NCBI GenBank assembly: GCA_965225945.1
Contig: CBDDBZ010000030.1
Location: 128,001 to 192,000 of the forward strand
Source: Alphaproteobacteria bacterium
Lineage (GTDB): Bacteria; Pseudomonadota; Alphaproteobacteria; GCA-2731375
DNA length: 64,000 nt
Reading direction: 5' to 3'
Below are positions 8,716-58,182 of this stretch, piece by piece. The notes beneath the pieces were generated by a model. The model searched no databases, had not been told where the DNA came from, and saw only the letters and a program-made list of their open reading frames with translations. Each line of letters starts with the position of its first letter. Positions within the stretch are counted from its first letter, which is position 1. The position numbers were made by a program, and so were the translations under genes.

Positions 8716-8818
8716 GCTCTCAGCGGGAATAGACGAGCAGGGCGACACCCAAGAGCGCCGCAGCCCAGATCGCCATCGAGCCGGTGGACCAAGTCCGCAC
8801 TCATAAATCGGTGACTGT

Positions 8819-9239
8819 TGTCTAATTGAGTTCTGTCCTTTCAGGAAATAATTCCGCCTTGCCGCATCTTCGGTTGTCCACGGGGTCCCCCGTTTTTCGG
8901 TTTTGGGTTCTACTCTTCCCCATGCTTCTCATGGCGCCTCGCTCACCATTGAAGGTGAGAAGGATTGGTGCCATCAGGCTCGAGTGTTCGAGTTCCGGTT
9001 GTCCAGTCGAGTTTTGTCCTCTCCGGATGGAATTCCGCCTTGCCGCATCTTCGGTTGTCTACCCGGCCTTGCCATGGGGGGCTGGAGTTGCCGGCGCCTC
9101 AGGATGGCGGTCAGAGGAAGAAGGGTGTCTTTGATGTCCCCAACGCGGTCGATGCCGCGACAGTATAGGCGAGATCACCCTTCCCCGTCAGGCTGCGGCA
9201 AGCAGGCGGAAGCGGGCCTAGGGCCCGCCGGCCCGACGC
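8819..9239 (-). ncRNA. Putative bridge/seek RNA region of IS110 copy 1
   Basis: About 420-bp 3' non-coding region essentially identical to 16100-16521, containing guide-like segments (see findings). Confidence 0.65.
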
Positions 9240-10271
9240 CTAGGCCCAACGAAAGTCGGTCTCGTCCTGCCACAGGCGGTGCAGCAGGACGGCGAGCTTT
9301 CTGGCGACGGCGACCCGGGCCCGCTTGGCCGCCTTGCGTTCCTGCAAGGCGAGGCCCCAGGTCCTGAGCGCGCAAGGGCGTTTCAGGGGCCCGAGCACCG
9401 CGTTGGCTCCCTCGTAGAGGGCATGGCGCAACATGGCGTCGCCCGCCCTCGGGATGTGGCCGACGAGATCGACCTCGCCGGATTGATAGCGCCTCGGCGT
9501 GAAGCCGATATAGGCGCCGACGTCGCCCGAGCGGGCGAAGCGCCCCGGATCCTCGATCGTGCATCTGTAGACCAACGCCAGGTGCGGACCGACGCCGGGC
9601 GCCGTCATCAGGCGCCGGGTGAGCGGGTCCCGGGCGGCGCGTACCTCGAGGCTCTTCTTCAGCTTGGCCAGTTCCTCGTCCAGGGCGGCGAGCGTCTCCA
9701 TGAGCGGCGACAGCGCCGGGCGTAGCGCCGGCATTCGGGTCAGCAACGCCTCGACGCGCTCGCGCCGCTTGTTCGGCGTCGTCACCTGGCCGAGCCGGAG
9801 GCCGAACAGCTTCAAGAGGCCACGCAGCTGATTGACCATGTCCCGGTGGCTCTTGACCAGTTGCCCGCGCACCCGAAGCTGCGCCCGCTCGAGGTGGCTC
9901 TCGGGGTCCTTGACGTGCACCGCCTTGAACCAGCCGGTGCGGGAGAGCTGGGCCAGCCCCTCGGCGTCGTTGGGATCGGTCTTGTTGACTCGGGTCGAGA
10001 GCACCCCCTTGGCATGGCGCGCGCAGACGCAAACCACCGCCACATCGCGCTCTTGGAGACCATGGTACAGGAAGACAGACAGCGGTCCGGTCTCCAGCAC
10101 CGCCCGCGACAGCACCGCCGCGAGCTTCGCCGTGTGTTTGGCCAGCGTCTTGGCGATCACGTCGGGATCGCTCGCGCAGCGCCCGCGCCAGAGCACCGCT
10201 CCGGCACCGTCCACCAGACAAATGTGGGTCTGCTTGTCGGAAACATCCAAACCGGCATAGACTTCGCGCAT
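9240..10271 (-). CDS. IS110 DEDD recombinase/transposase
   Basis: GLDVS, VLETG, NKTDPNDAEG, C-terminal YQSG serine and ARVAVARKLA. Confidence 0.92.
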   Translation of the reverse strand: MREVYAGLDVSDKQTHICLVDGAGAVLWRGRCASDPDVIAKTLAKHTAKLAAVLSRAVLETGPLSVFLYHGLQERDVAVVCVCARHAKGVLSTRVNKTDPNDAEGLAQLSRTGWFKAVHVKDPESHLERAQLRVRGQLVKSHRDMVNQLRGLLKLFGLRLGQVTTPNKRRERVEALLTRMPALRPALSPLMETLAALDEELAKLKKSLEVRAARDPLTRRLMTAPGVGPHLALVYRCTIEDPGRFARSGDVGAYIGFTPRRYQSGEVDLVGHIPRAGDAMLRHALYEGANAVLGPLKRPCALRTWGLALQERKAAKRARVAVARKLAVLLHRLWQDETDFRWA

Positions 10272-10432
10272 GGGTCATCCTCCTTCTTGAAGCCACCGAC
10301 GGACTTCAGGCCGGGGCGGACTTCGTGGTTAGTCGGAGGGTGACCCTAACTCAATTACGCCATGTCCCCGGAAATCGTGTCCCCGGAAATCTGCCTCCGG
10401 TTTCCCCGAAGGCATTTACGCAATCGCGCGCG

Positions 10433-12070: not shown

Positions 12071-13163
12071 AAGGGCTGGACTCGTCGATAAGAAATTTCG
12101 ATCGCGGCAATAATCCCCCAGGTAGGAAATCTAGTGTCAAAATACAACCGTAGCAGCGGAAAATACTTATTTCCATATATGCGGTATTAAGGTTTTTAAG
12201 GCCCGAGAGGCGTTTTTTGCAGAACGACGTTCGGCCGGGCCGCAGCGAAGCGGGAACGGCGTTGAATTTCAATATCTTGATGGTATTTGGAATATTTGGA
12301 TCGCATTATAAACGCGCTCGAAAACGTCGTCATCCGCGATGACGCGCGGCAATTCGGCGCATTTAGGCACTTTCCGACCAGGTTGAAACGTTTGATGGGG
12401 ATGATTTTGGATTTCAAGGGACATGGCGTAATTGAGTTAGGGTCACCCTCCCAACAACCACGAAGCCGCCCTGGTCTAACGTCCATTGGGCGGCTTCGAG
12501 AAGGAGGATGACCCATGCGCGAAGTCTATGCCGGTTTGGATGTTTCCGACAAGCAGACCCACATTTGTCTGGTGGACGGTGCCGGAGCGGTGCTATGGCG
12601 CGGGCGCTGCGCGAGCGATCCCGACGTCATCGCCAAGACGCTGGCCAAGCACACGGCGAAGCTGTCGGCGGTGCTGGCCAGGGCGGTGCTGGAGACCGGC
12701 CCGCTCTCGACCTTCCTGTTCCATGGTCTGCAGATGCGCAAAGTGGCGGTGGTTTGCGTCTGCGCGCGCCATGCCAAGGGGGTGCTCTCGACCCGAGTCA
12801 ACAAGACCGATCCCAACGACGCCGAGGGGCTGGCCCAGCTCGCCCGCACCGGCTGGTTCAAGGCGGTGCACGTCAAGGACCCCGAGAGCCACCTCGAGCG
12901 GGCGCAGCTTCGGGTGCGCGGGCAACTGGTCAAGAGCCACCGGGACATGGTCAATCAGCTGCGTGGCCTCTTGAAGCTGTTCGGCCTCCGGCTCGGCCAG
13001 GTGACGACGCCGAACAAGCGGCGCGAGCGCGTCGAGGCGTTGCTGACCTGTGGAACGGCGTGCAAAGTTGACCCCTGTTGAGGGGTGATCGGCGTCCAAA
13101 TTTGACCCCCTGAGCCTGGCTAGTCCAAGTCACCTCGTTTTTGGGCGGACGAGGTGGTGGGGG

Positions 13164-14675
13164 ATGTTGGTCGTGGAGACGATAGCGCGGATCCGGCGGG
13201 AGTATTTCGTCAAGGGGAAGCCGATCAAGGAGATCGTGCGGGACGTGAAGGTCTCGGGCAACACGGTGCGCAAGGTGATCTGTTCGCAGGCGACGGCGTT
13301 CACCTACGACCGGCGGGTCCAGCCGATGCCGAAGCTGGGGCCGTGGACGGCCGAGCTGGAGCGGATGCTGGAGGCCAACGAGACCAAGTCGAAGCGGGAG
13401 CGGCTGACGCTGCTACGGATCTCCGAAGCCCTCGAGGGTCTGGGCTATGGCGGCGGCTACGACGCGGTGCGGCGCTACGCCAAGGCGTGGCGGTGGCGCC
13501 GTTCGGCATCGACGGCGCAGACCTATGTGCCGTTGGTGTTCTCGCCGGGCGAGGCCTATCAGTTCGACTGGAGCCACGAGTACGTGGTGCTGGCGGGGGT
13601 GACGACCAAGGTCAAGGTCGCGCACGTCCGGCTGTGCCACAGCCGAATGTTCTTCGTCCGCGCTTATCCGCGCGAGAGCCAGGAGATGGTGTTCGACGCC
13701 CACGACCGGGCATTCCGGCTGTTCCAGGGTGCCTGCCGGCGAGGCATCTACGACAACATGAAGACGGCGGTGCAGACCGTCCTCATCGGCAAGGAGCGCG
13801 CGTTCAACCGGCGCTTCGTGCAGATGTGTGGCCACTACCTGGTCGAACCGACAGCATGCACGCCGGGAGCGGGATGGGAGAAGGGGCAGGTCGAGAACCA
13901 GGTCGGGATCATCCGCGGTCGGTTCTTCACCCCGCGGCTGCGCTTCAAGACCTACGACGAGCTCAACGCCTGGCTCTTGGACCAGTGCGTCGCCTACGCC
14001 CGGCGTCATCCCCACCCGGTGTTCAAGGACAGGACTGTCTGGCAGGTGTTCGAGGACGAGCGTCCGTCCCTGGTCGGCTATCGCGGGCCGTTCGACGGCT
14101 TCCACGCGGTCCCGGCGTCGGTGTCGAAGACCTGCCTGGTGCGCTTCGACAGCAACAAGTACAGCGTGGCGGCGCGCGCCGTCGGCCGTCCGGTCGAGGT
14201 CCATGCCTACGCCGATCGCATCGTCATCCGCCAGGACGGCGAGATCGTCGCCGAGCATGCCCGGCGCTTCGGCCGCGACCAGACCGTCTATGACCCGTGG
14301 CACTACGTGCCCGTGCTGGCGAGGAAGCCCGGTGCGCTTCGTAACGGCGCGCCGTTCAAGGACTGGGCGCTGCCCGGCGCCCTGGGTCGCGTGCGCGTCC
14401 GGCTCGCCGGCCACGACGACGGCGACAGGCAGATGGTCGAGATCCTCACCGCCGTGCTGGCGGATGGGCTGGCGGCGGTGGAGGCCGCCTGTGCCGAGGC
14501 GCTCGCTGGCGGCGTGTGCAGCGCCGACGTCGTGCTCAACATCCTCAATCGTCGGCGCCAGCCGTCCGAGACGGCGCCGATCCCGACGCCCGCGAACCTG
14601 CGTCTTCGCTTTGAGCCGGTGGCCGATTGCACCCGCTACGACCGCTTGAGGGGGGTCGGCCATGGAGCGCCATGA
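13164..14675 (+). CDS. istA: IS21 transposase
   Basis: [25 protein letters not shown]. Confidence 0.93.
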
Positions 14676-15390
14676 GGTCCTGGAGATGATGGCCGCACTC
14701 AAGCTCGCCGGCATGCGCGACGCGTTCGACGAGGTGCTCGCCGACGGCCTCAAGCGCCAGCATCCGATGCAGCGAATCATCGGCGAGCTGTTGAAGGCCG
14801 AGATCGCCGACAAGCAGGCGCGATCCATCAAGTACCAGATGAGTGGCGCCAAGCTGCCGCTGGCCAAGGAGCTGGCCGACTTCGACTTCACCGACACCCC
14901 GGTCAACGAGCCGCTGGTCCGCGAGTTGGCGGTCGGCGGCTTCCTGGCCAACCAGCGCAACGCCGTGCTGATCGGCGGCACCGGCACCGGCAAGAGCCAT
15001 CTCGCCGTCGCCATCGCGCGGGCCTGCATCCGCGATGGCGCCCGGGGCCGCTTCTTCAACGTCGTCGACCTGGTCAACCGGCTCGAGGCCGAAGCCCGCG
15101 CCGGCCGCCAGGGCCGGCTCGCCGATCAGCTGGCCCGGCGCGACCTCGTCATCCTCGACGAGCTCGGCTACCTGCCCTTCGCCCAAACCGGAGGCCAGCT
15201 GCTGTTCCACCTCGTCAGCCGGCTCTACGAGCGCACCTCGATCATCGTCACCACCAACCTGACCTTCGGCGAATGGCCGTCCGTCTTCGGCGACGCCAAG
15301 ATGACCACCGCGCTCCTCGATCGTCTGACGCACCACTGCGAGATCATCGAGACCGGAAACGACTCCTGGCGCTTCAAGAATCGGTCCTAA
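14662..15390 (+). CDS. istB: IS21 AAA+ helper ATPase
   Basis: [30 protein letters not shown]. Confidence 0.93.
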
Positions 15391-16099
15391 AGGCAACCGA
15401 TCCACCTGCCGCCCGGTCGCCCAGGTGGGCCCACAGGAACCTCCCACGCGCGGTCCGCCGCCAGCCGCGTGGTGGGCGCGTCGGCCCGCGCGCGGGCCCC
15501 TCCTATGGACTACCTGTACGACCTCCGCCGTGCATCCCCAAAGGGGTCAACATTGCACGCCGATAGGGGGTCAATGTTCAACGCCGATTGACATGCTGAC
15601 CCGCATGCCAGCGCTACGCCCGGCGCTGTCGCCGCTCTTGGAGACGCTCGCCGCCCTGGAGGAGGAACTGGCCAAGCTGAAGAAGAGCCTCGAGGTACGC
15701 GCCGCCCGGGACCCGCTCACCCGGCGCCTGATGACGGCGCCCGGCGTCGGTCCGCACCTGGCGTTGGTCTACAGATGCACGATCGAGGATCCGGGGCGCT
15801 TCGCCCGCTCGGGCGACGTCGGCGCCTATATCGGCTTCACGCCGAGGCGCTATCAATCCGGCGAGGTCGATCTCGTCGGCCACATCCCGAGGGCGGGCGA
15901 CGCCATGTTGCGCCATGCCCTCTACGAGGGAGCCAACGCGGTGCTCGGGCCCCTGAAACGCCCTTGCGCGCTCAGGACCTGGGGCCTCGCCTTGCAGGAA
16001 CGCAAGGCGGCCAAGCGGGCCCGGGTCGCCGTCGCCAGAAAGCTCGCCGTCCTGCTGCACCGCCTGTGGCAGGACGAGACCGACTTTCGTTGGGCCTAG

Positions 16100-16521
16100 G
16101 CGTCGGGGCCGGCGGGCCCTAGGCCCGCTTCCGCCTGCTTGCCGCAGCCTGACGGGGAAGGGTGATCTCGCCTATACTGTCGCGGCATCGACCGCGTTGG
16201 GGACATCAAAGACACCCTTCTTCCTCTGACCGCCATCCTGAGGCGCCGGCAACTCCAGCCCCCCATGGCAAGGCCGGGTAGACAACCGAAGATGCGGCAA
16301 GGCGGAATTCCATCCGGAGAGGACAAAACTCGACTGGACAACCGGAACTCGAACACTCGAGCCTGATGGCACCAATCCTTCTCACCTTCAATGGTGAGCG
16401 AGGCGCCATGAGAAGCATGGGGAAGAGTAGAACCCAAAACCGAAAAACGGGGGACCCCGTGGACAACCGAAGATGCGGCAAGGCGGAATTATTTCCTGAA
16501 AGGACAGAACTCAATTAGACA
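16100..16521 (+). ncRNA. Putative bridge/seek RNA region of IS110 copy 2
   Basis: Stem / internal loop / hairpin at 16157-16220 with target-matching segments; donor-matching segments at 16231 and 16279; 29-bp internal repeat. Confidence 0.65.
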
Positions 16522-17496
16522 ACACAATACCTATCTTCCGTACCCTCGTGACGAGGATGGGTATTGCGTCCCCATAACTATGTTTCGGTGACACAATACT
16601 TATCGTAACTGCCCAGGTACATGGTGGCCTTTTAGGCGGCGTGGAGACGCTCGATCAGGGTTTCGGGATTTTCCATGAGCGCCTGGATGATGTTCCAGCC
16701 CTGTTTTCTGGCGGTCGAGATGAAGCCACGGACGGTGGCAAAGTCTTCGGCGCCTTTCTGGCTGCGGAAGCCGCCGGAGATTTTCTGCTTGACCTTCATC
16801 ATGCGCCCGTCCTGCTCGGCCTGATTGTTGGTGAACGGCACGGCGAAATTGATGAGGAAGCGCAGCGCGTCTTCCTTGTGTGTCTGAAGGCGCCGGAGAA
16901 GGTTGTGCCCGGTGCGGCGCGGCTTGCTTCCCCGGCGCTTGGCCTTGCTCGATCTGGGCGCAAGAGGAGGTTGTGCCTCGTGAAAGGCGATGCCCTCGGC
17001 CGTGATCGCGTCGTAACACCCTCGGAAGCGCTCGACGAGGCCTGGTTTCAGCGCCACGCCCCGCTCCCGGGCGAGATTTACCGCGTGGCAGGCGCGGCGC
17101 AATAGTCTCTGCATCTTGCGTGCCCAGCCCTCCTTCTCGATCTCGATCAGGGCTTGCAACTCGCGCAGGTGATGGGCGTTGCACAGCGCGTGCCGTACGC
17201 CCTCCATCGTAAAGTACGGCTTCCAGTGGTCATGGACGACGATGCCGCCGACTCCGCCGAGCAGGCTGCCGCGTCGCTCCGAGACCCGATAGAAGGTCAA
17301 CCGCGCGGTCGAGGCGACGTGCAACCATTGGGTCCGCCCGGCGATCCGCAAGCCGGTCTCGTCCATGTGCTTGACCGGCGCCGATTTCACCAGTTCGCGG
17401 ATCACATCGACGACGCCTTGGACGGACTCGGCGCTGTTCCCGCCCATCCGCGCGAGGCTCGCCGGAGACAGTTCCGCCCCGAACAGATCCTTCATC

Positions 17497-18251
17497 CTTG
17501 CCTATCCGGTTATCACCCACACCCACTATATGTAGTGTGTCTCCTTGGACTGCAGGCAAGGGCCGGCGCAGGCGCATTGAGGAGGCGATCCGGCTAATTC
17601 TTGATTGTTCTGAAAACCGAACCGGAGTTTAATTCACGTCACGTACTTAACATCGGGGGACGGAACGGTGGCGACCAAGGGAAAAACGAAGAAACCCACG
17701 GCCAGACGGGAAGCTGCTGATGAAACGACATCGTCTGAGCGATTGACGGCACTAGTCGAAGAAAGCGACGCGCTGGCACGAATCGTTGCGAAGAACCCGT
17801 CCGCGCCTGTTAGTCTCCTGCGCGTTTTGAGTCGCAGCGAAGACGAAGCGACACGCAAGAACGTGATCCTCAATCCGTTTACTTCATATGACGTATTGAG
17901 CGAACTTGAAAACCAGCTCACAGAGCTATTTGTGAATAATCCGGCACTCGAATCCTACAATTCAATGAAGCTCTGATTTCCTGGAATATTCCATCGGTGT
18001 CGTTCACCTCCGATTTCAGATAAATTTCAATGAAGTGACGGTCCTTTATGCAACGTGGCGTTTTGCCAAATCCGACTCAATGATTAGGATTTCCACCACG
18101 CTAAAGTGTCGCCTAAAAGGCGCTACAATGCCGTCCGAGTCCCTGCTCGGCATCGCCGGAGATATCTCCGCTTCGACCTGCACCGAGCTTTACTCAGGAA
18201 AATGGGTGCACACTACATATAGTGGGTGTGGGTGATAACCGGATAGGCAAG
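17497..18251. mobile_element. Non-autonomous TIR element (MITE/MIC-like) with lower-GC cargo
   Basis: Perfect 43-bp TIRs (17497-17539, 18209-18251); 8-bp TSD CCTTCATC at 17489-17496 and 18252-18259; no transposase. Confidence 0.9.
17668..17976 (+). CDS. Small LRV/HEAT-repeat-like cargo ORF, possibly truncated
   Basis: Repeating ...VAKNPSAP...VILNPFT...VNNPAL pattern. Confidence 0.45.
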   Translation: MATKGKTKKPTARREAADETTSSERLTALVEESDALARIVAKNPSAPVSLLRVLSRSEDEATRKNVILNPFTSYDVLSELENQLTELFVNNPALESYNSMKL

Positions 18252-35587: not shown

Positions 35588-36894
35588 GCCGCGTCTTCCG
35601 CGAGCCTCAGTCCGCTGAACTGCCAGCGTTGATGGGGATAGAAGAAATTTCGGTAGCTCGCCCGCGTGTGATGATCGGGTGTGACACAAGACCCACCGCG
35701 CAGAACGACTTGGCCGCTCATGAACTTGCCGTTGTATTCGCCGACCGCACCCACGGCGGGCCGGTAGCCCGGATAGGGCGTGAAGGCGGAGCCGGTAAGC
35801 TCCCAGACATCGCCGAAAAGCTGTTGAAGCGGCCCCTCGGCCTCATCGGCGGGGGCGGGTCTCAAGCGGCCGCTTCCCATCCAGTTGCCACGCACCGGAC
35901 AGTCCGCGGCCGCGATCTCCCATTCTTGCTCGGTCGGCAGGCGCTTGCCTGCCCAACTCGCATAAGCGTCTGCCTCGTAATGGCTGACGTGGCAGACGGG
36001 GGCGGCCATCTCAACCGGTTGCATGCCCCGGAGCGTCATGGACCACCACTCGCCGTCCCGCCTTTCCCAGTAAAGCGGCGCCTGCCACTCTTCGCTCCGC
36101 ACGTTGGCCCAGCCATCCGAAAACCAGAATTCGGCGCGCCGGTAACCGTCATCGTCCATGAACGCGAGCCATTCGGCGTTGGTCACCGGTCGTGAGGCGA
36201 TGCGATAGGGCCTGATCAGCACCTCGTGGCGCGGTCCCTCATGGTCGAAGGCGAAGCCCGCGCAGTCATGACCGATCTCGTAGATGCCGCCTGACACGTC
36301 GTGCCAGGAGAACGGTGATGCGGTCCGCCTCTCGGTTGGCACACCTCGTTTGAAGGCGGGTCTTACGGGATTGCAGGAAAACAGGTGCAGGATATCGGTC
36401 AGGATCAGTTCTTGATGCTGCTCCTCGTGGTGAAGGCCCAGATTGAGGAGCGGTCCGAGCCGCGCCCACGTGCCCTCGTCCATGCTCCGCAGATATCCGA
36501 GAACTGCCGTATCGACGTGGGCTCTATAGGCCAGAATCTGGTCGATCGTCGGGCGCGTGAGCATGCCGCGCTGCGGCCTTGGATGACGCGCGCCGACCGC
36601 CTCGTAATAGGAATTGAAAAGGTAGCCATAATGCGGATCGAAGAGCGCGTAGGTAGGCTCGTTCGGCGCGAGGAGAAAGGTCTCGAAGAACCATGTGGTG
36701 TGCCCAAAATGCCATTTCATTGGACTGGCATCGGGCATCGACTGCACGACCTGATCCTCCGGCGAAACCTCACGGCCGAGCGATTCGGTGACCTGCCGAA
36801 CCTGCCGGTAGCGCTCGAGCGGTGTAGCGGTGCAGCTGTCGCGACGCGAATCCGCCATCATCGGTGTAGCGGTCGGCGCGAGGCGCGAAGCCAT
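35584..36894 (-). CDS. egtB: Ergothioneine sulfoxide synthase
   Basis: QSMPDASPMKWHFGHTTWFFE, HHEEQHQEL, GEYNGKFM, RASYRNFF; start uncertain. Confidence 0.92.
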   Translation of the reverse strand: MASRLAPTATPMMADSRRDSCTATPLERYRQVRQVTESLGREVSPEDQVVQSMPDASPMKWHFGHTTWFFETFLLAPNEPTYALFDPHYGYLFNSYYEAVGARHPRPQRGMLTRPTIDQILAYRAHVDTAVLGYLRSMDEGTWARLGPLLNLGLHHEEQHQELILTDILHLFSCNPVRPAFKRGVPTERRTASPFSWHDVSGGIYEIGHDCAGFAFDHEGPRHEVLIRPYRIASRPVTNAEWLAFMDDDGYRRAEFWFSDGWANVRSEEWQAPLYWERRDGEWWSMTLRGMQPVEMAAPVCHVSHYEADAYASWAGKRLPTEQEWEIAAADCPVRGNWMGSGRLRPAPADEAEGPLQQLFGDVWELTGSAFTPYPGYRPAVGAVGEYNGKFMSGQVVLRGGSCVTPDHHTRASYRNFFYPHQRWQFSGLRLAEDAA

Positions 36895-57183: not shown

Positions 57184-58182
57184 ATGCGCGATCGAGTCGC
57201 TGCCCAGATGCGGAGATGGCTTCCCCAGAGATCGTCGTCCACGCCCCTGCTGGAAGATTTTCGGATCAAGCGGATCGCTCTCAAGGGGGGAATCGCGGTG
57301 TTGCTGGTGGTGGCGCTCTATTATCCGCTCGGCATGGCGCTGACGCATCGGATCTCGGACGACATCGACTTCCAGGCGGGGCCGCGGGACTGGGTCGAGG
57401 GCGGCAGCCACGCGGTCTCGATCGCGACGGCGCTGATCGATCGCGAGATCGACGAGAACCGCTGGGTCGCCAACGATCCCTGGTTCCTGGCGCCGGCGGC
57501 GCTCGACAACATGCCCAACTTCCAGCAAGGCATCATCCGCGCCATCGGCCGCTTCGCCTTCGAGCTGGTGGATCAGATCGGCCGCACCCGGGGCTCGAGC
57601 CAGACCGACCCCGACCTGCAGGAAGCCTCGGGTCAACTGCAATACGCGGGCGACGTCTGGATCTTCGACCTCTCGACCTCCTACATCCCCACGACGCCCT
57701 CGGAGAGTCGCTACCGCAAGGCTCGCCGCTCGCTCCAGGACTACAACCGTCGGCTTGCCGGCGGCGGCGCCAAGTTCGAACGGCGCAACGACAACCTGTT
57801 GGCGACGCTGGATCGCATCGCGCTCGATCTCGGCGCCTCCTCGGCGACGCTCGACAGCCACATCGAGCAGCATTCGGGCCGCTTGATCGATACTTTGGCG
57901 GATGATCACTTCTACGGGATCAAGGGCCAGACCTATGCCTACTACCTGCTGCTGCGCGAACTGGGACGAGATTTCGAGACCGTCATCGCCGCGCGGGAAC
58001 TCACCGCCGCCTGGGAAGAGATGTTGGGAAGCCTCGGCTCGGCGGCCGCGCTGTCGCCGCTGGTGATCGTCAATGGGGCGCCGGATTCGCAGGTCTTGCC
58101 GAGCCACCTGGCGTCGCAAGGCTTCTATCTGCTGCGCGCCCGCGCCAAACTCCGCGAGATCACCAACATCTTGCTGAAATAG
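57184..58182 (+). CDS. DUF2333-like protein
   Basis: WVANDP, LDNMPNFQQG, R.RGSSQTDPDL, ADDHFY. Confidence 0.75.
   Translation: MRDRVAAQMRRWLPQRSSSTPLLEDFRIKRIALKGGIAVLLVVALYYPLGMALTHRISDDIDFQAGPRDWVEGGSHAVSIATALIDREIDENRWVANDPWFLAPAALDNMPNFQQGIIRAIGRFAFELVDQIGRTRGSSQTDPDLQEASGQLQYAGDVWIFDLSTSYIPTTPSESRYRKARRSLQDYNRRLAGGGAKFERRNDNLLATLDRIALDLGASSATLDSHIEQHSGRLIDTLADDHFYGIKGQTYAYYLLLRELGRDFETVIAARELTAAWEEMLGSLGSAAALSPLVIVNGAPDSQVLPSHLASQGFYLLRARAKLREITNILLK

Follow-up and report, generated by a model that had tools for sequence, protein, structure and literature searches.

The stretch of DNA analysed here, a window of 64,000 nucleotides from an alphaproteobacterial genome, carries two copies of an insertion sequence, hereafter ISx. 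Copy 1 is intact, measures 1547 bp including one AC core, and lies on the minus strand at about 8817 to 10363 with its left end at the high coordinate; it was delimited by the inverted repeats I1-I3, the junctions and a blastn comparison with the genome. Copy 2 (12423 to 16523, plus strand) is split at about 13049-15593 by an IS21 element, as judged from the junctions and from the Pfam matches of the IS21 genes. The transposase of copy 1 (ORF at 9240 to 10271, minus strand) combines a DEDD (RuvC-like) N-terminal domain with an IS110-type C-terminal domain. The ISx transposase is 343 aa long and matches PF01548 with 64.5 bits (cut-off 29), PF02371 with 61.6 bits (cut-off 21.3) and the NCBIfam model NF033542, "IS110 family RNA-guided transposase", with 218.6 bits (cut-off 140). 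Its translation contains, as GFTPRRYQSG, the motif G-x-x-P-x-x-x-x-S-G; the form G-x-x-P-x-x-x-x-S/T-G is described as conserved in the C-terminal domain of the IS110 family (Siddiquee 2024, PMC11187229). The non-coding ends are unequal in length, as in the IS1111 group, with 92 nt on the left (12423-12514) and 425 nt on the right (16100-16523). Subterminal inverted repeats of 10 bp are found 6 and 4 nt inward of the cores. The left arm, TAATTGAGTT (12429 to 12438), is the reverse complement of the right arm, AACTCAATTA, which was read in the sequence at 16508 to 16517; repeats of this kind, 7-17 bp long, are described as typical of the IS1111 group (Durrant 2024, PMC11208160). Since the domains, the subterminal repeats, the end lengths and the 343-aa transposase (IS1111 range, 330-350 aa) match the features described by Durrant 2024 and Siddiquee 2024, ISx is, by its sequence features, a member of the IS1111 group of the IS110 family. 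Its right end would hold a guide-RNA gene.

The clade of ISx is alphaproteobacterial, and in the plasmid collection its closest relatives with a name carry no annotation beyond IS110 family, ISAzs32-like or ISMno22-like. A scan of genome contigs for the same element outside its own genome returned 15 loci, whose protein identity ranges from 37 to 63%, and nothing closer. Five of the 33 genomes of the host's order have a match, and none of 109 records from the plasmid collection spans 80% of it. The yield of additional ISx insertion sites beyond its own genome was a single new right flank, from an RNA-library contig (run X3).

Copy 1 is flanked by GGGG-ACA-TGGCG on the left and TAGACA-ACA-GTCAC on the right, and copy 2 by AGGG-ACA-TGGCG and TAGACA-ACA-CAATA. 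The junctions share just AC(A), and no other duplication was seen. A first-pass annotation of this DNA had read a 3-nt ACA core here, which we revise to what is probably an AC dinucleotide followed by a coincidental A. Four related families have AC-A at the left junction and AC-G or AC-C at the right one, a pattern that argues against ACA as the core; the A of the left junction is the first base of the element. From these comparisons, AC is most likely the shared core of ISx. Copy 2 sits within one arm of a REP-like palindrome. A word carried by the arms of this palindrome recurs at the end of a neighbouring IS66-family element, and neither of the remaining two complete ISx sites belongs to the palindrome's family. 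An exchange of flanks by inversion between the two inverted copies was ruled out, as the flanks of copy 2 jointly make up one arm of the palindrome and the other arm is intact.

The right end of copy 2 contains, at 16151 to 16226 on the plus strand, a module that constrained and free folds, a covariance model (R1) and pair counts on 14 relatives identify as a target-binding loop. Copy 1 carries the same sequence at 9114 to 9189 on the minus strand, located by right-end alignment and by a cmsearch with model R1 (61.8 bits, E 1.3e-13). All the word coordinates of the first-pass annotation were confirmed by direct reading of the sequence. The outer helix, P1, pairs 16154-16164 with 16213-16223 and includes the stem words GAAGGGTG (16157-16164) and CACCCTTC (16213-16220). 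It is followed by a bulged A at 16165, by helix P1b (16166-16168 with 16210-16212) and by the hairpin P2, in which CGCGG (16181-16185) pairs with CCGCG (16192-16196). In the RNA folds, the guide words fall on opposite strands of the internal loop closed by this stem and this hairpin. The putative right-target guide, TATACTGT (16173 to 16180, plus strand), is the reverse complement of AC-AGTATA and would pair with the top strand over the core and the right flank; the homologous column of the model tracks the right flanks of the relatives. The putative left-target guide (16197 to 16204, plus strand), placed by the model alignment and the left junctions, consists of TTGGGG and the core AC in top-strand letters and would pair with the bottom strand. 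The word GGGGACA reads at 16199-16205, and the AT at 16205-16206, after the left guide and core, equals the first two bases of the element, in the manner of a handshake guide. A further helix, annotated at 16131-16305 on the plus strand and pairing 16129-16147 with 16290-16308, is predicted by the minimum-free-energy and centroid folds to close around both this module and a second loop region downstream.

Support for this structure comes from its conservation. The folding energy was not significantly better than that of shuffled sequences, either over 431 nt (z = -1.7, with 5 of 100 shuffles folding as well) or over 188 nt (z = -1.4, 19 of 200). Rfam gave no match at the gathering score in the whole window, and at E <= 1 the sole match within 16050-16560 was Tombus_3_IV (E 0.41), taken as chance. 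Model R1, a covariance model of seven sequences, finds four relatives outside its seed, with E values of 2.8e-4, 2.2e-3, 3.8e-3 and 0.26. The seed, alignment A4, carries a hand-written structure; the MAFFT alignments A1-A3 misplaced some 3' strands. Searches with R1 did not find the module in the family G1b (L028) or in ISy (L032, L036), a second family, and four weak matches (L006:136-225, L021:1081-1142 and positions 36260-36335 and 58025-58064 of the window) were taken as chance; the Novosphingobium pSA3 element (L053) was outside the set searched. Over 14 sequences, 90.3% of the helix cells are paired, against 72.3 +/- 1.8% in shuffles, none of 500 of which reaches 90.3%, in an alignment that was fitted to R1 and that favours the structure accordingly. 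In the three helices, 10 of 14 pairs are changed on both sides, and controls slid along the alignment pair at 36-49%. The loop strands remain unpaired while the helices show these compensatory changes.

In this genome, the flanks of ISx match the right arm poorly. The left flanks are CCGGGG, ATGGGG, CAAGGG and CTGGGA, and those of the solo left ends CCGGGG, ATGGGG and CCGGGG, each then followed by AC. The right flanks are AGTCAC, AGTTTC and ACAATA, and the three complete sites match the right arm at 3, 4 and 4 of 6 positions. None of these flanks is unrelated to the predicted site; other copies in unrelated targets would, according to the first-pass annotation, have spoken against its proposal. 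Regarding its suggestion that right-arm mismatches are tolerated, the mismatches themselves are observed (3-4 of 6 at three sites), and from them we infer that the element may be active at such sites. Two perfect copies of the predicted 12-mer are unoccupied in the genome. Searches of the two congeneric genomes with the sequences flanking copies 1 and 2 and the C11 copy brought up paralogous or repeated sequence only, and no orthologous empty site of ISx; for ISy, an empty site is present in this genome. When the mononucleotides of the 425-nt right end were shuffled 20,000 times to gauge chance, GGGGACA turned up in 5.8% of the shuffles, and GGGGACA with ACTGT at most 45 nt upstream in 0.15%. 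Within ISx alone, the match between guides and sites is suggestive; at the level of sequence, the comparison with relatives renders it conclusive.

One such relative is an element on a Sphingomonadales MAG contig (L001), whose transposase is 60% identical and which carries TATACTGT and GGGGAC at the same places as ISx. Its insertion site is precisely the predicted GGGGACAGTATA, AGTATACGAAATAG comes directly after its right end, and an unoccupied, paralogous GGGGACAGTATACGAAATAG is found 30 nt further downstream. The target GGGG-ACA-GTATA, predicted in the first-pass annotation, is therefore the real insertion site of an element that shares the guide words. Moreover, relatives with other guide words occupy correspondingly other flanks, and the strand logic agrees with that of IS621 and the IS1111 seekRNAs, which upholds the reading of the target loop.

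We compared guides and flanks across six guide groups: ISx, Novosphingobium pSA3, ISz, a Microvirga family, a Limnocylindria/alphaproteobacterial family and G1b. Cognate guide/flank identity is 7.7-12 of 12, ISx being the weakest pair at 7.7/12, and non-cognate identity has a mean of 3.16 and a maximum of 6. The true assignment of guides to flanks is the best of 720 permutations, also for each arm alone; these are few groups, and kin share guide and site by descent. The co-variation that the first-pass annotation proposed to look for across homologous elements is hence present, and the comparison of sequences establishes it together with the loop architecture, the conserved helices and the guide/flank match. 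The rows of the matrix hold one of about 10 loci of the Microvirga family, one of three of the Limnocylindria family and two of seven of G1b. Three loci with only the right flank known were left outside for that reason (L001, L017 and L019, with right-arm identities of 6/6, 5/6 and 4/6). L020 was left outside because its site resembles that of G1b; adding it brings the number of permutations that reach the observed sum to 2 of 720. ISy was left outside because its register differs; its right-target guide does not cover the core. The guide positions of two of the six groups, Novosphingobium pSA3 and G1b, were placed by eye. The guide words were first marked with the flanks known; in the model alignment, made later, the guides of the other groups fall in these same columns. 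The comparison relied on fixed homologous positions because un-anchored best-match searches of the right ends with 10-mers or 8-mers taken from flanks or ends were too noisy (background 6-8 of 10).

Downstream of the target-binding loop lie two words that may act as donor guides. CGCCAT (16231 to 16236, plus strand) is the reverse complement of the six bases that open the left end, ATGGCG, and TAGACAAC (16279 to 16286, plus strand) has the letters of the last eight bases of the right end, TAGACA and the core AC. The equivalents of CGCCAT in relatives, matched by eye, are CGCGAT, CACCAT, CACTAT, CCCCAT, CGCCAT and CAGGAT, where the left ends read, in the same order, ACCGCG, ATGGGG, ATAGCG, ATGGGG, ATGGCG and ATCCCA. 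Likewise, TAGACA is replaced by GAGAGA or GATAGA where the right end closes with AGAGA or TATAGA, and the best internal match to the right-end word is at the equivalent place in the right ends of 9 of 11 relatives. The first-pass assignment of both words to the element's own ends is supported by this co-variation, with positions matched by eye. The left- and right-end words are nearly alike in six of the groups, and therefore few independent co-changes back the donor words. In the predicted fold they appear in a multi-branch region, not in a simple internal loop.

The terminal 65 nt of the right end (16459 to 16523, plus strand) are an 85%-identical second copy of 16278-16342, as seen in repeat family D2 and by pairwise alignment. 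The first unit (16278-16342) retains an intact donor word and a decayed end, and the second a decayed donor word (GTGGACAAC) and a working end; GATGCGGCAAGGCGGAATT occurs twice. This duplication bears on a narrower reading of the region, to which we give a minor, still appreciable share of the probability. Here only the first module (16151-16226) would guide, as a short seekRNA that reads the target, while CGCCAT and TAGACAAC would be conserved DNA words, such as transposase binding sites or leftovers of the duplicated right end; the ends would be recognised through the subterminal inverted repeats and the target halves flanking the element. According to the published description, an 82-nt seekRNA with target matches alone supports the movement of a mini-element, and the donor must be flanked by target sequence (Siddiquee 2024, PMC11187229). 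GACAAC is found four times in the right end of ISx (16281, 16337, 16462 and 16518), the terminal 65 nt are duplicated and the likeness of the ends could therefore be by descent, and CGCCAT is just 6 nt long and pairs in part in a weak hairpin of the predicted fold. However, from group to group the internal word shifts in step with that of the right end (TAGACA, GAGAGA, GATAGA and, in ISy, AGAGAAG), the word ahead of the second hairpin shifts with the left end (ATGG, ATAG, ATCC, A-CGCG), and the donor words keep the 5'/3' order and strand sense of the target guides. We favour two loop regions, one for the target and a putative one for the donor. A bolder proposal, which we consider improbable, is that ISx has two alternative right ends and two alternative 3' partners for the closing helix, which would give it more than one circle or RNA form, like the modular transposition reported for ISPpu9 (PMC12288879), and that a poor right arm would be tolerated because the element aims at diverse REP-like or terminal-repeat words beginning with GGGGAC-A.

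Whether the conserved stem-loop works as RNA or as DNA is a separate matter. It could act in transposition as a single-stranded DNA hairpin or as a protein-binding site, given that co-variation of pairs cannot separate RNA from single-stranded DNA and that the RNA-library contigs show no transcript ends. These contigs cover the right end of ISx in 4 of 4 runs from 2 studies, a weak hint of RNA, as they carry no transcript end, strand or level and DNA carry-over is possible. Their ends vary between runs, and the transposase gene is covered in part. Against a role as DNA, the base of P2 is a T-G (G-U wobble) pair in 8 of 14 sequences and further wobbles are found in P1b, which RNA tolerates. In addition, the module lies on the transposase strand about 50-110 nt past the stop codon in all relatives, and the family's published mechanism works through RNA, which co-purified with four IS1111 transposases according to Siddiquee 2024 (PMC11187229). 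We therefore regard a DNA stem-loop as very improbable. Least credible of all is that the complementarity is a coincidence in a G+C-rich non-coding end, the hairpin being a terminator or a stabiliser of the transposase mRNA that plays no part in choosing the site: an unremarkable folding energy, the frequency of GGGGACA alone in shuffled right ends and the partial right-arm matches in this genome would fit, but not the co-variation of guides and flanks over six groups, the exact 12-mer occupied by L001, or compensatory changes in helices whose loop strands stay unpaired.

The comparison with known systems was made with published descriptions. As described for the seekRNAs of ISEc11, ISPa11, ISKpn4 and ISPst6 (Siddiquee 2024, PMC11187229), the RNA of ISx would be encoded in a long non-coding stretch downstream of the gene for the transposase, and a pair of short segments match the target's top and bottom strands, overlapping in the target, with the top-strand match 5' of the bottom-strand match. 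ISx also shares with these elements the subterminal inverted repeats, a transposase within the size range of the group, the C-terminal motif ending in SG and natural retargeting among relatives through changed loop words; unlike theirs, its target is GGGG-AC-AGTATA. In IS621 as described by Hiraizumi 2024 (PMC11208158), the left target is read on its bottom strand by one guide, and the right target on its top strand by the other. Like IS621 (PMC11208160, PMC11208158), ISx appears to have target and donor internal-loop modules, each consisting of stem, guide, stem-loop and guide, with a bulged A beside the outer stem and with both guides covering the dinucleotide core. As in the IS621 handshake guides, the 3' loop strand continues past the core with one to four bases that agree with the partner DNA: AT in ISx, and for ISz ATGG (target loop) and AC (donor loop). 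Unlike in IS621, where the RNA is in the left end, the RNA of ISx would be in the right end, after the gene, and the order of its guides is reversed relative to the transposase gene, equivalent to the same scaffold reading the site turned round. Moreover, ISx has AC (GT in the complementary strand) and not CT as its core, along with long subterminal inverted repeats, and its donor words apparently lie in a multi-branch region. The insertion of copy 2 in an arm of a REP-like palindrome may be set beside the descriptions of IS4321/IS5075 and ISPpu9/ISPpu10 (ISPpu9: PMC12288879).

Altogether, we conclude with high confidence that an IS1111-group bridge RNA (seekRNA) has its target-binding loop encoded at 16151-16226, and at 9114-9189 on the minus strand, and this RNA would be read as follows. 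By analogy with the published mechanism of the family, the long right end, downstream of the transposase gene, would give rise to an RNA that binds the DEDD/serine recombinase. Of the two loop strands, the 3' one (TTGGGG-AC) would pair with the bottom strand in the left half of the target and the 5' one (TATACT-GT) with the top strand in the right half. Both loop strands cover the AC strand-exchange core, and therefore the cognate site would be (TT)GGGG-AC-AGTATA. The second loop region, with CGCCAT at 16231 and TAGACA-AC at 16279, would serve the donor. The element would then enter between the AC core and the right flank, without duplication. Synthesis of the RNA, its binding by the transposase, a circle intermediate and the chemistry would all proceed as published for the family.

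The first-pass annotation had presented ISx as a further programmable member of the family. The IS1111-type guide is confirmed, and the system is not of a new kind: RNA-guided IS1111 elements were published in 2024. Right-end RNA guides are reported as predicted for 93% of IS1111 elements (Durrant 2024, PMC11208160) and as shown experimentally for four of them, with RNA co-purifying with the transposases (Siddiquee 2024, PMC11187229). Our findings open no new mechanism, and NCBI annotation models already name the protein family "RNA-guided transposase". They do show that bare sequence is enough to read an IS1111-type guide and to predict its target correctly. In addition, they yield the target-loop model R1 for the alphaproteobacterial clade, an AC core and natural examples of retargeting, and they permit the correct annotation of the ends and targets of such elements in this genome and its relatives.

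The bridge-RNA guide that the first-pass annotation placed at 16150-16290, in the right end of copy 2 of ISx, an IS110/IS1111-type insertion sequence, is real and was correctly interpreted, as supported by a relative inserted in the predicted 12-mer target, by the co-variation of guides and flanks, and by structure. ISx is present twice in the window, in inverted orientation. Copy 1 (approximately 8817-10363, minus strand) is intact, and copy 2 (12423-16523, plus strand) is split by an IS21-family element (13049-15593) lying inside its transposase gene; Pfam matches (IstB_IS21, rve) confirm the istA (13164-14675) and istB (14662-15390) genes of this insert. The arms of copy 1 that match either side of the insertion have 8 nt in common (9738-9745), the overlap that an 8-bp target duplication would leave. 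The copy 1 gene product (343 aa) has the Pfam domains DEDD_Tnp_IS110 and Transposase_20, matches the NCBIfam model NF033542 "IS110 family RNA-guided transposase" at 218.6 bits (cut-off 140) and carries the C-terminal motif GFTPRRYQSG. A 10-bp subterminal inverted repeat (TAATTGAGTT and AACTCAATTA), a left end of 92 nt and a right end of 425 nt give ISx the marks of the IS1111 group, which the accounts of Durrant (2024; PMC11208160) and Siddiquee (2024; PMC11187229) describe as a subterminal inverted repeat with a short left and a long right end.

All words and coordinates of the proposed guide proved correct on direct reading, and the reconstructed empty sites of both copies agreed with the junctions. 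RNA folding places TATACTGT and GGGGACA on opposite strands of one internal loop, closed by an outer stem of 8-11 bp, a bulged A, a 3-bp inner helix and the CGCGG/CCGCG hairpin; the folding energy is unremarkable against shuffles (z = -1.7 and -1.4). GGGGACA occurs by chance in 5.8% of shuffled ISx right ends, and together with ACTGT at most 45 nt upstream in 0.15%. A covariance model of this target-binding module (16151-16226 in copy 2), built from seven sequences with 14 pairs set by hand, gives 61.8 bits for each of the two window copies and also found four relatives outside the seed. In the resulting alignment of 14 sequences the guide words fall in the columns that had been chosen by hand, and 10 of the 14 pairs show changes on both sides. 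Pairing cells reach 90.3%, compared with 72.3 +/- 1.8 after shuffling (0 of 500 shuffles as high), in an alignment that was fitted to the model and hence favours the structure; sliding the partners by 1-3 columns lowers pairing to 36-49%. No Rfam family matched anywhere in the window, the ISx right-end region included.

The strand logic of the loop is that of characterized systems. In the description of IS621 by Hiraizumi (2024; PMC11208158), the left-target guide base-pairs to the left half-site on its bottom strand and the right-target guide to the right half-site on its top strand, each guide also spanning the core. For IS1111 seekRNAs, the account of Siddiquee (2024) gives a top-strand match lying 5' of the bottom-strand match, the two overlapping in the target. 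The ISx loop is consistent with both the strand rule and the match order and, with the site taken on its opposite strand, reproduces the IS621 layout of stem, left guide, stem-loop, right guide and handshake bases. Past the core, the 3' loop strand continues with AT in ISx and with ATGG in the Microvirga family and in ISz, a family with four copies in another genome, in each case the bases with which the element starts; in ISz the donor word is followed by AC, with which its right target arm starts. Judged from these words, the post-core bases of the three families may be handshake-like.

The decisive evidence comes from relatives, namely 15 loci from a protein-based scan, host-order matches in 5 of 33 genomes and one plasmid record, in every one of which the target-loop module lies approximately 50-110 nt past the transposase stop codon. 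L001, a 60% identical relative with the same guide words (right TATACTGT, left TCGGGGAC), sits in the site predicted for ISx: its right end is followed by AGTATACGAAATAG, and an empty GGGGACAGTATACGAAATAG lies 30 nt beyond that flank. Where guides differ, flanks differ with them. ISz (right guide ATCTGTGT, left guide TGATGAAC) is flanked by GATG(A/C)-AC on the left and, in three of its four copies, by AC-ACAGAT on the right; L017, from the same genus and 67% identical, has right guide GTAACTGT and right flank GGTTAC; and the element of Novosphingobium resinovorum pSA3 (right guide AGGTTTGT, left guide TTTGGGAC) lies between TCTGGG-AC and AC-AATCCT. The Microvirga family, a Limnocylindria/alphaproteobacterial family, L020 and a second family of the ISz genome agree likewise. 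Across six groups with differing guides, scored over six positions per arm, cognate identity was 7.7, 10, 9.5, 11, 12 and 8 of 12, against a non-cognate mean of 3.16 (maximum 6), with guide words first marked when the flanks were already known and rows including L001, L017, L019, L020 and ISy left out of the matrix. The true pairing outscores every other of the 720 permutations, on either arm alone as well, in a set of few groups, two of them placed by eye only.

Searches of the genome (blastn/tblastn) recovered a third complete ISx copy on contig C11 (97% identical), an interrupted copy on C13 with its right end cut short, several solo left ends (C37, C4, C34, C32) and, at the end of C16, a duplicate of the right part of copy 2. 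This last stretch (C16 1-2066), which also takes in the right IS21 part and the flank to the right of copy 2, probably arose as an assembly duplication of window 14450-16600. Copies 1, 2 and C11 do not differ in the guide region; the C13 copy differs there by one change. These copies do not sit in unrelated targets: their left flanks are GGG(G)-like, reading CCGGGG, CAAGGG, ATGGGG and CTGGGA before AC in the copies and CCGGGG, ATGGGG and CCGGGG at solo left ends, with differing left flanks at the more diverged C32 and C34 fragments. The right flanks of the three complete copies (AGTCAC, ACAATA, AGTTTC) match the guide at no more than 3-4 of 6 positions, mismatches of the kind from which right-arm tolerance was suggested.

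The 3-nt ACA core proposed earlier is shared by the ISx junctions (left GGGG-ACA-TGGCG, right TAGACA-ACA-GT), but probably only its AC belongs to the core. The Microvirga (L002) and Limnocylindria families, L020 and family G1b have AC-A at the left junction and AC-G or AC-C at the right, and all left ends of the clade start with A. The simplest reading of these junctions, as distinct from empty sites, is that the core would be the AC dinucleotide, the third A in ISx both starting the element and opening the right target arm. Cores of two bases are described for IS621 (CT; Hiraizumi, 2024) and ISPpu9 (AG; PMC12288879).

As for the donor halves of the circle junction, the left end opens with six bases of which CGCCAT at 16231 is the reverse complement, and the right end closes with eight bases identical to TAGACAAC at 16279. 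Words at equivalent places in relatives vary along with the element ends (left ATGG, ATAG, ATCC, A-CGCG; right TAGACA, GAGAGA, GATAGA, and AGAGAAG in ISy), these places being matched by eye and the independent changes few. We consider it probable that both are donor loop words reading the ISx ends. The rival reading, that only the short target module acts as guide, as in the 82-nt ISEc11 seekRNA, is less probable. The last 65 nt of the right end are doubled, 181 nt apart and 85% alike (16278-16342 and 16459-16523 in copy 2; 8817-8881 and 8998-9062 in copy 1). The outer unit is the working right end; the inner one retains TAGACAAC, its end and inverted repeat having decayed. In relatives only approximately 60-75 nt separate the donor word from the element end.

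Another family of IS1111 type in this genome, ISy, has a transposase with 42% identity and is present in approximately 11 copies (L032-L045; contigs C34, C24, C12, C29, C37, C21, C38, C33, C26). An empty site on C38 (minus strand, near 305196) fixes its junction within GAGC-GAA-GCCGACATT. Its right end contains words matching both the right target arm and the left junction, ordered as in ISx and set in a different register, and the covariance model did not find ISy. Its copies sit in a repeated site; in one of them, L036, the guide region is a variant and the flank is different.

Several ISx targets lie in repeats. Copy 2 occupies one arm of a palindrome from a REP-like family with many copies in the genome (approximately 55 nt, arms starting GGGGACACAATAC, more than 15 places including window 16524-16625). 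This arm word is also the end of the neighbouring IS66-family element (approximately 16600-17495), which has 14 matching places in one same-genus genome. Its transposase gene is cut at approximately 17495 by another element (at 17496-17560), whose end sequence also interrupts ISx on C13 (7350-8100). Several ISx left flanks carry tandem repeats of approximately 15 nt (window 10364-10395; C4 near 10671; C34 near 299341), the units alike in their GGGGAC ending and otherwise differing between places. A similar repeat lies at an unoccupied L001 site (1440-1480), and two perfect target 12-mers are unoccupied in the ISx host genome.

RNA-library contigs cover most of the ISx right end in four of four runs from two studies, one contig joining it to the copy 2 flank. 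This is a weak hint of transcription, as neither the ends nor the strand or level of a transcript can be told from such contigs, and the libraries may contain DNA. A contig of run X3 (window 8813-9133) joins the right end to a flank absent from the window, starting AGTCGTAAC, and so records one more insertion site, in a related strain or community.

Altogether, these comparisons refine the first reading with a probable AC core and a right arm poorly matched in the host genome. On sequence grounds, the ISx guide belongs with the bridge/seek RNAs already published for IS1111 elements and reveals no new mechanism.
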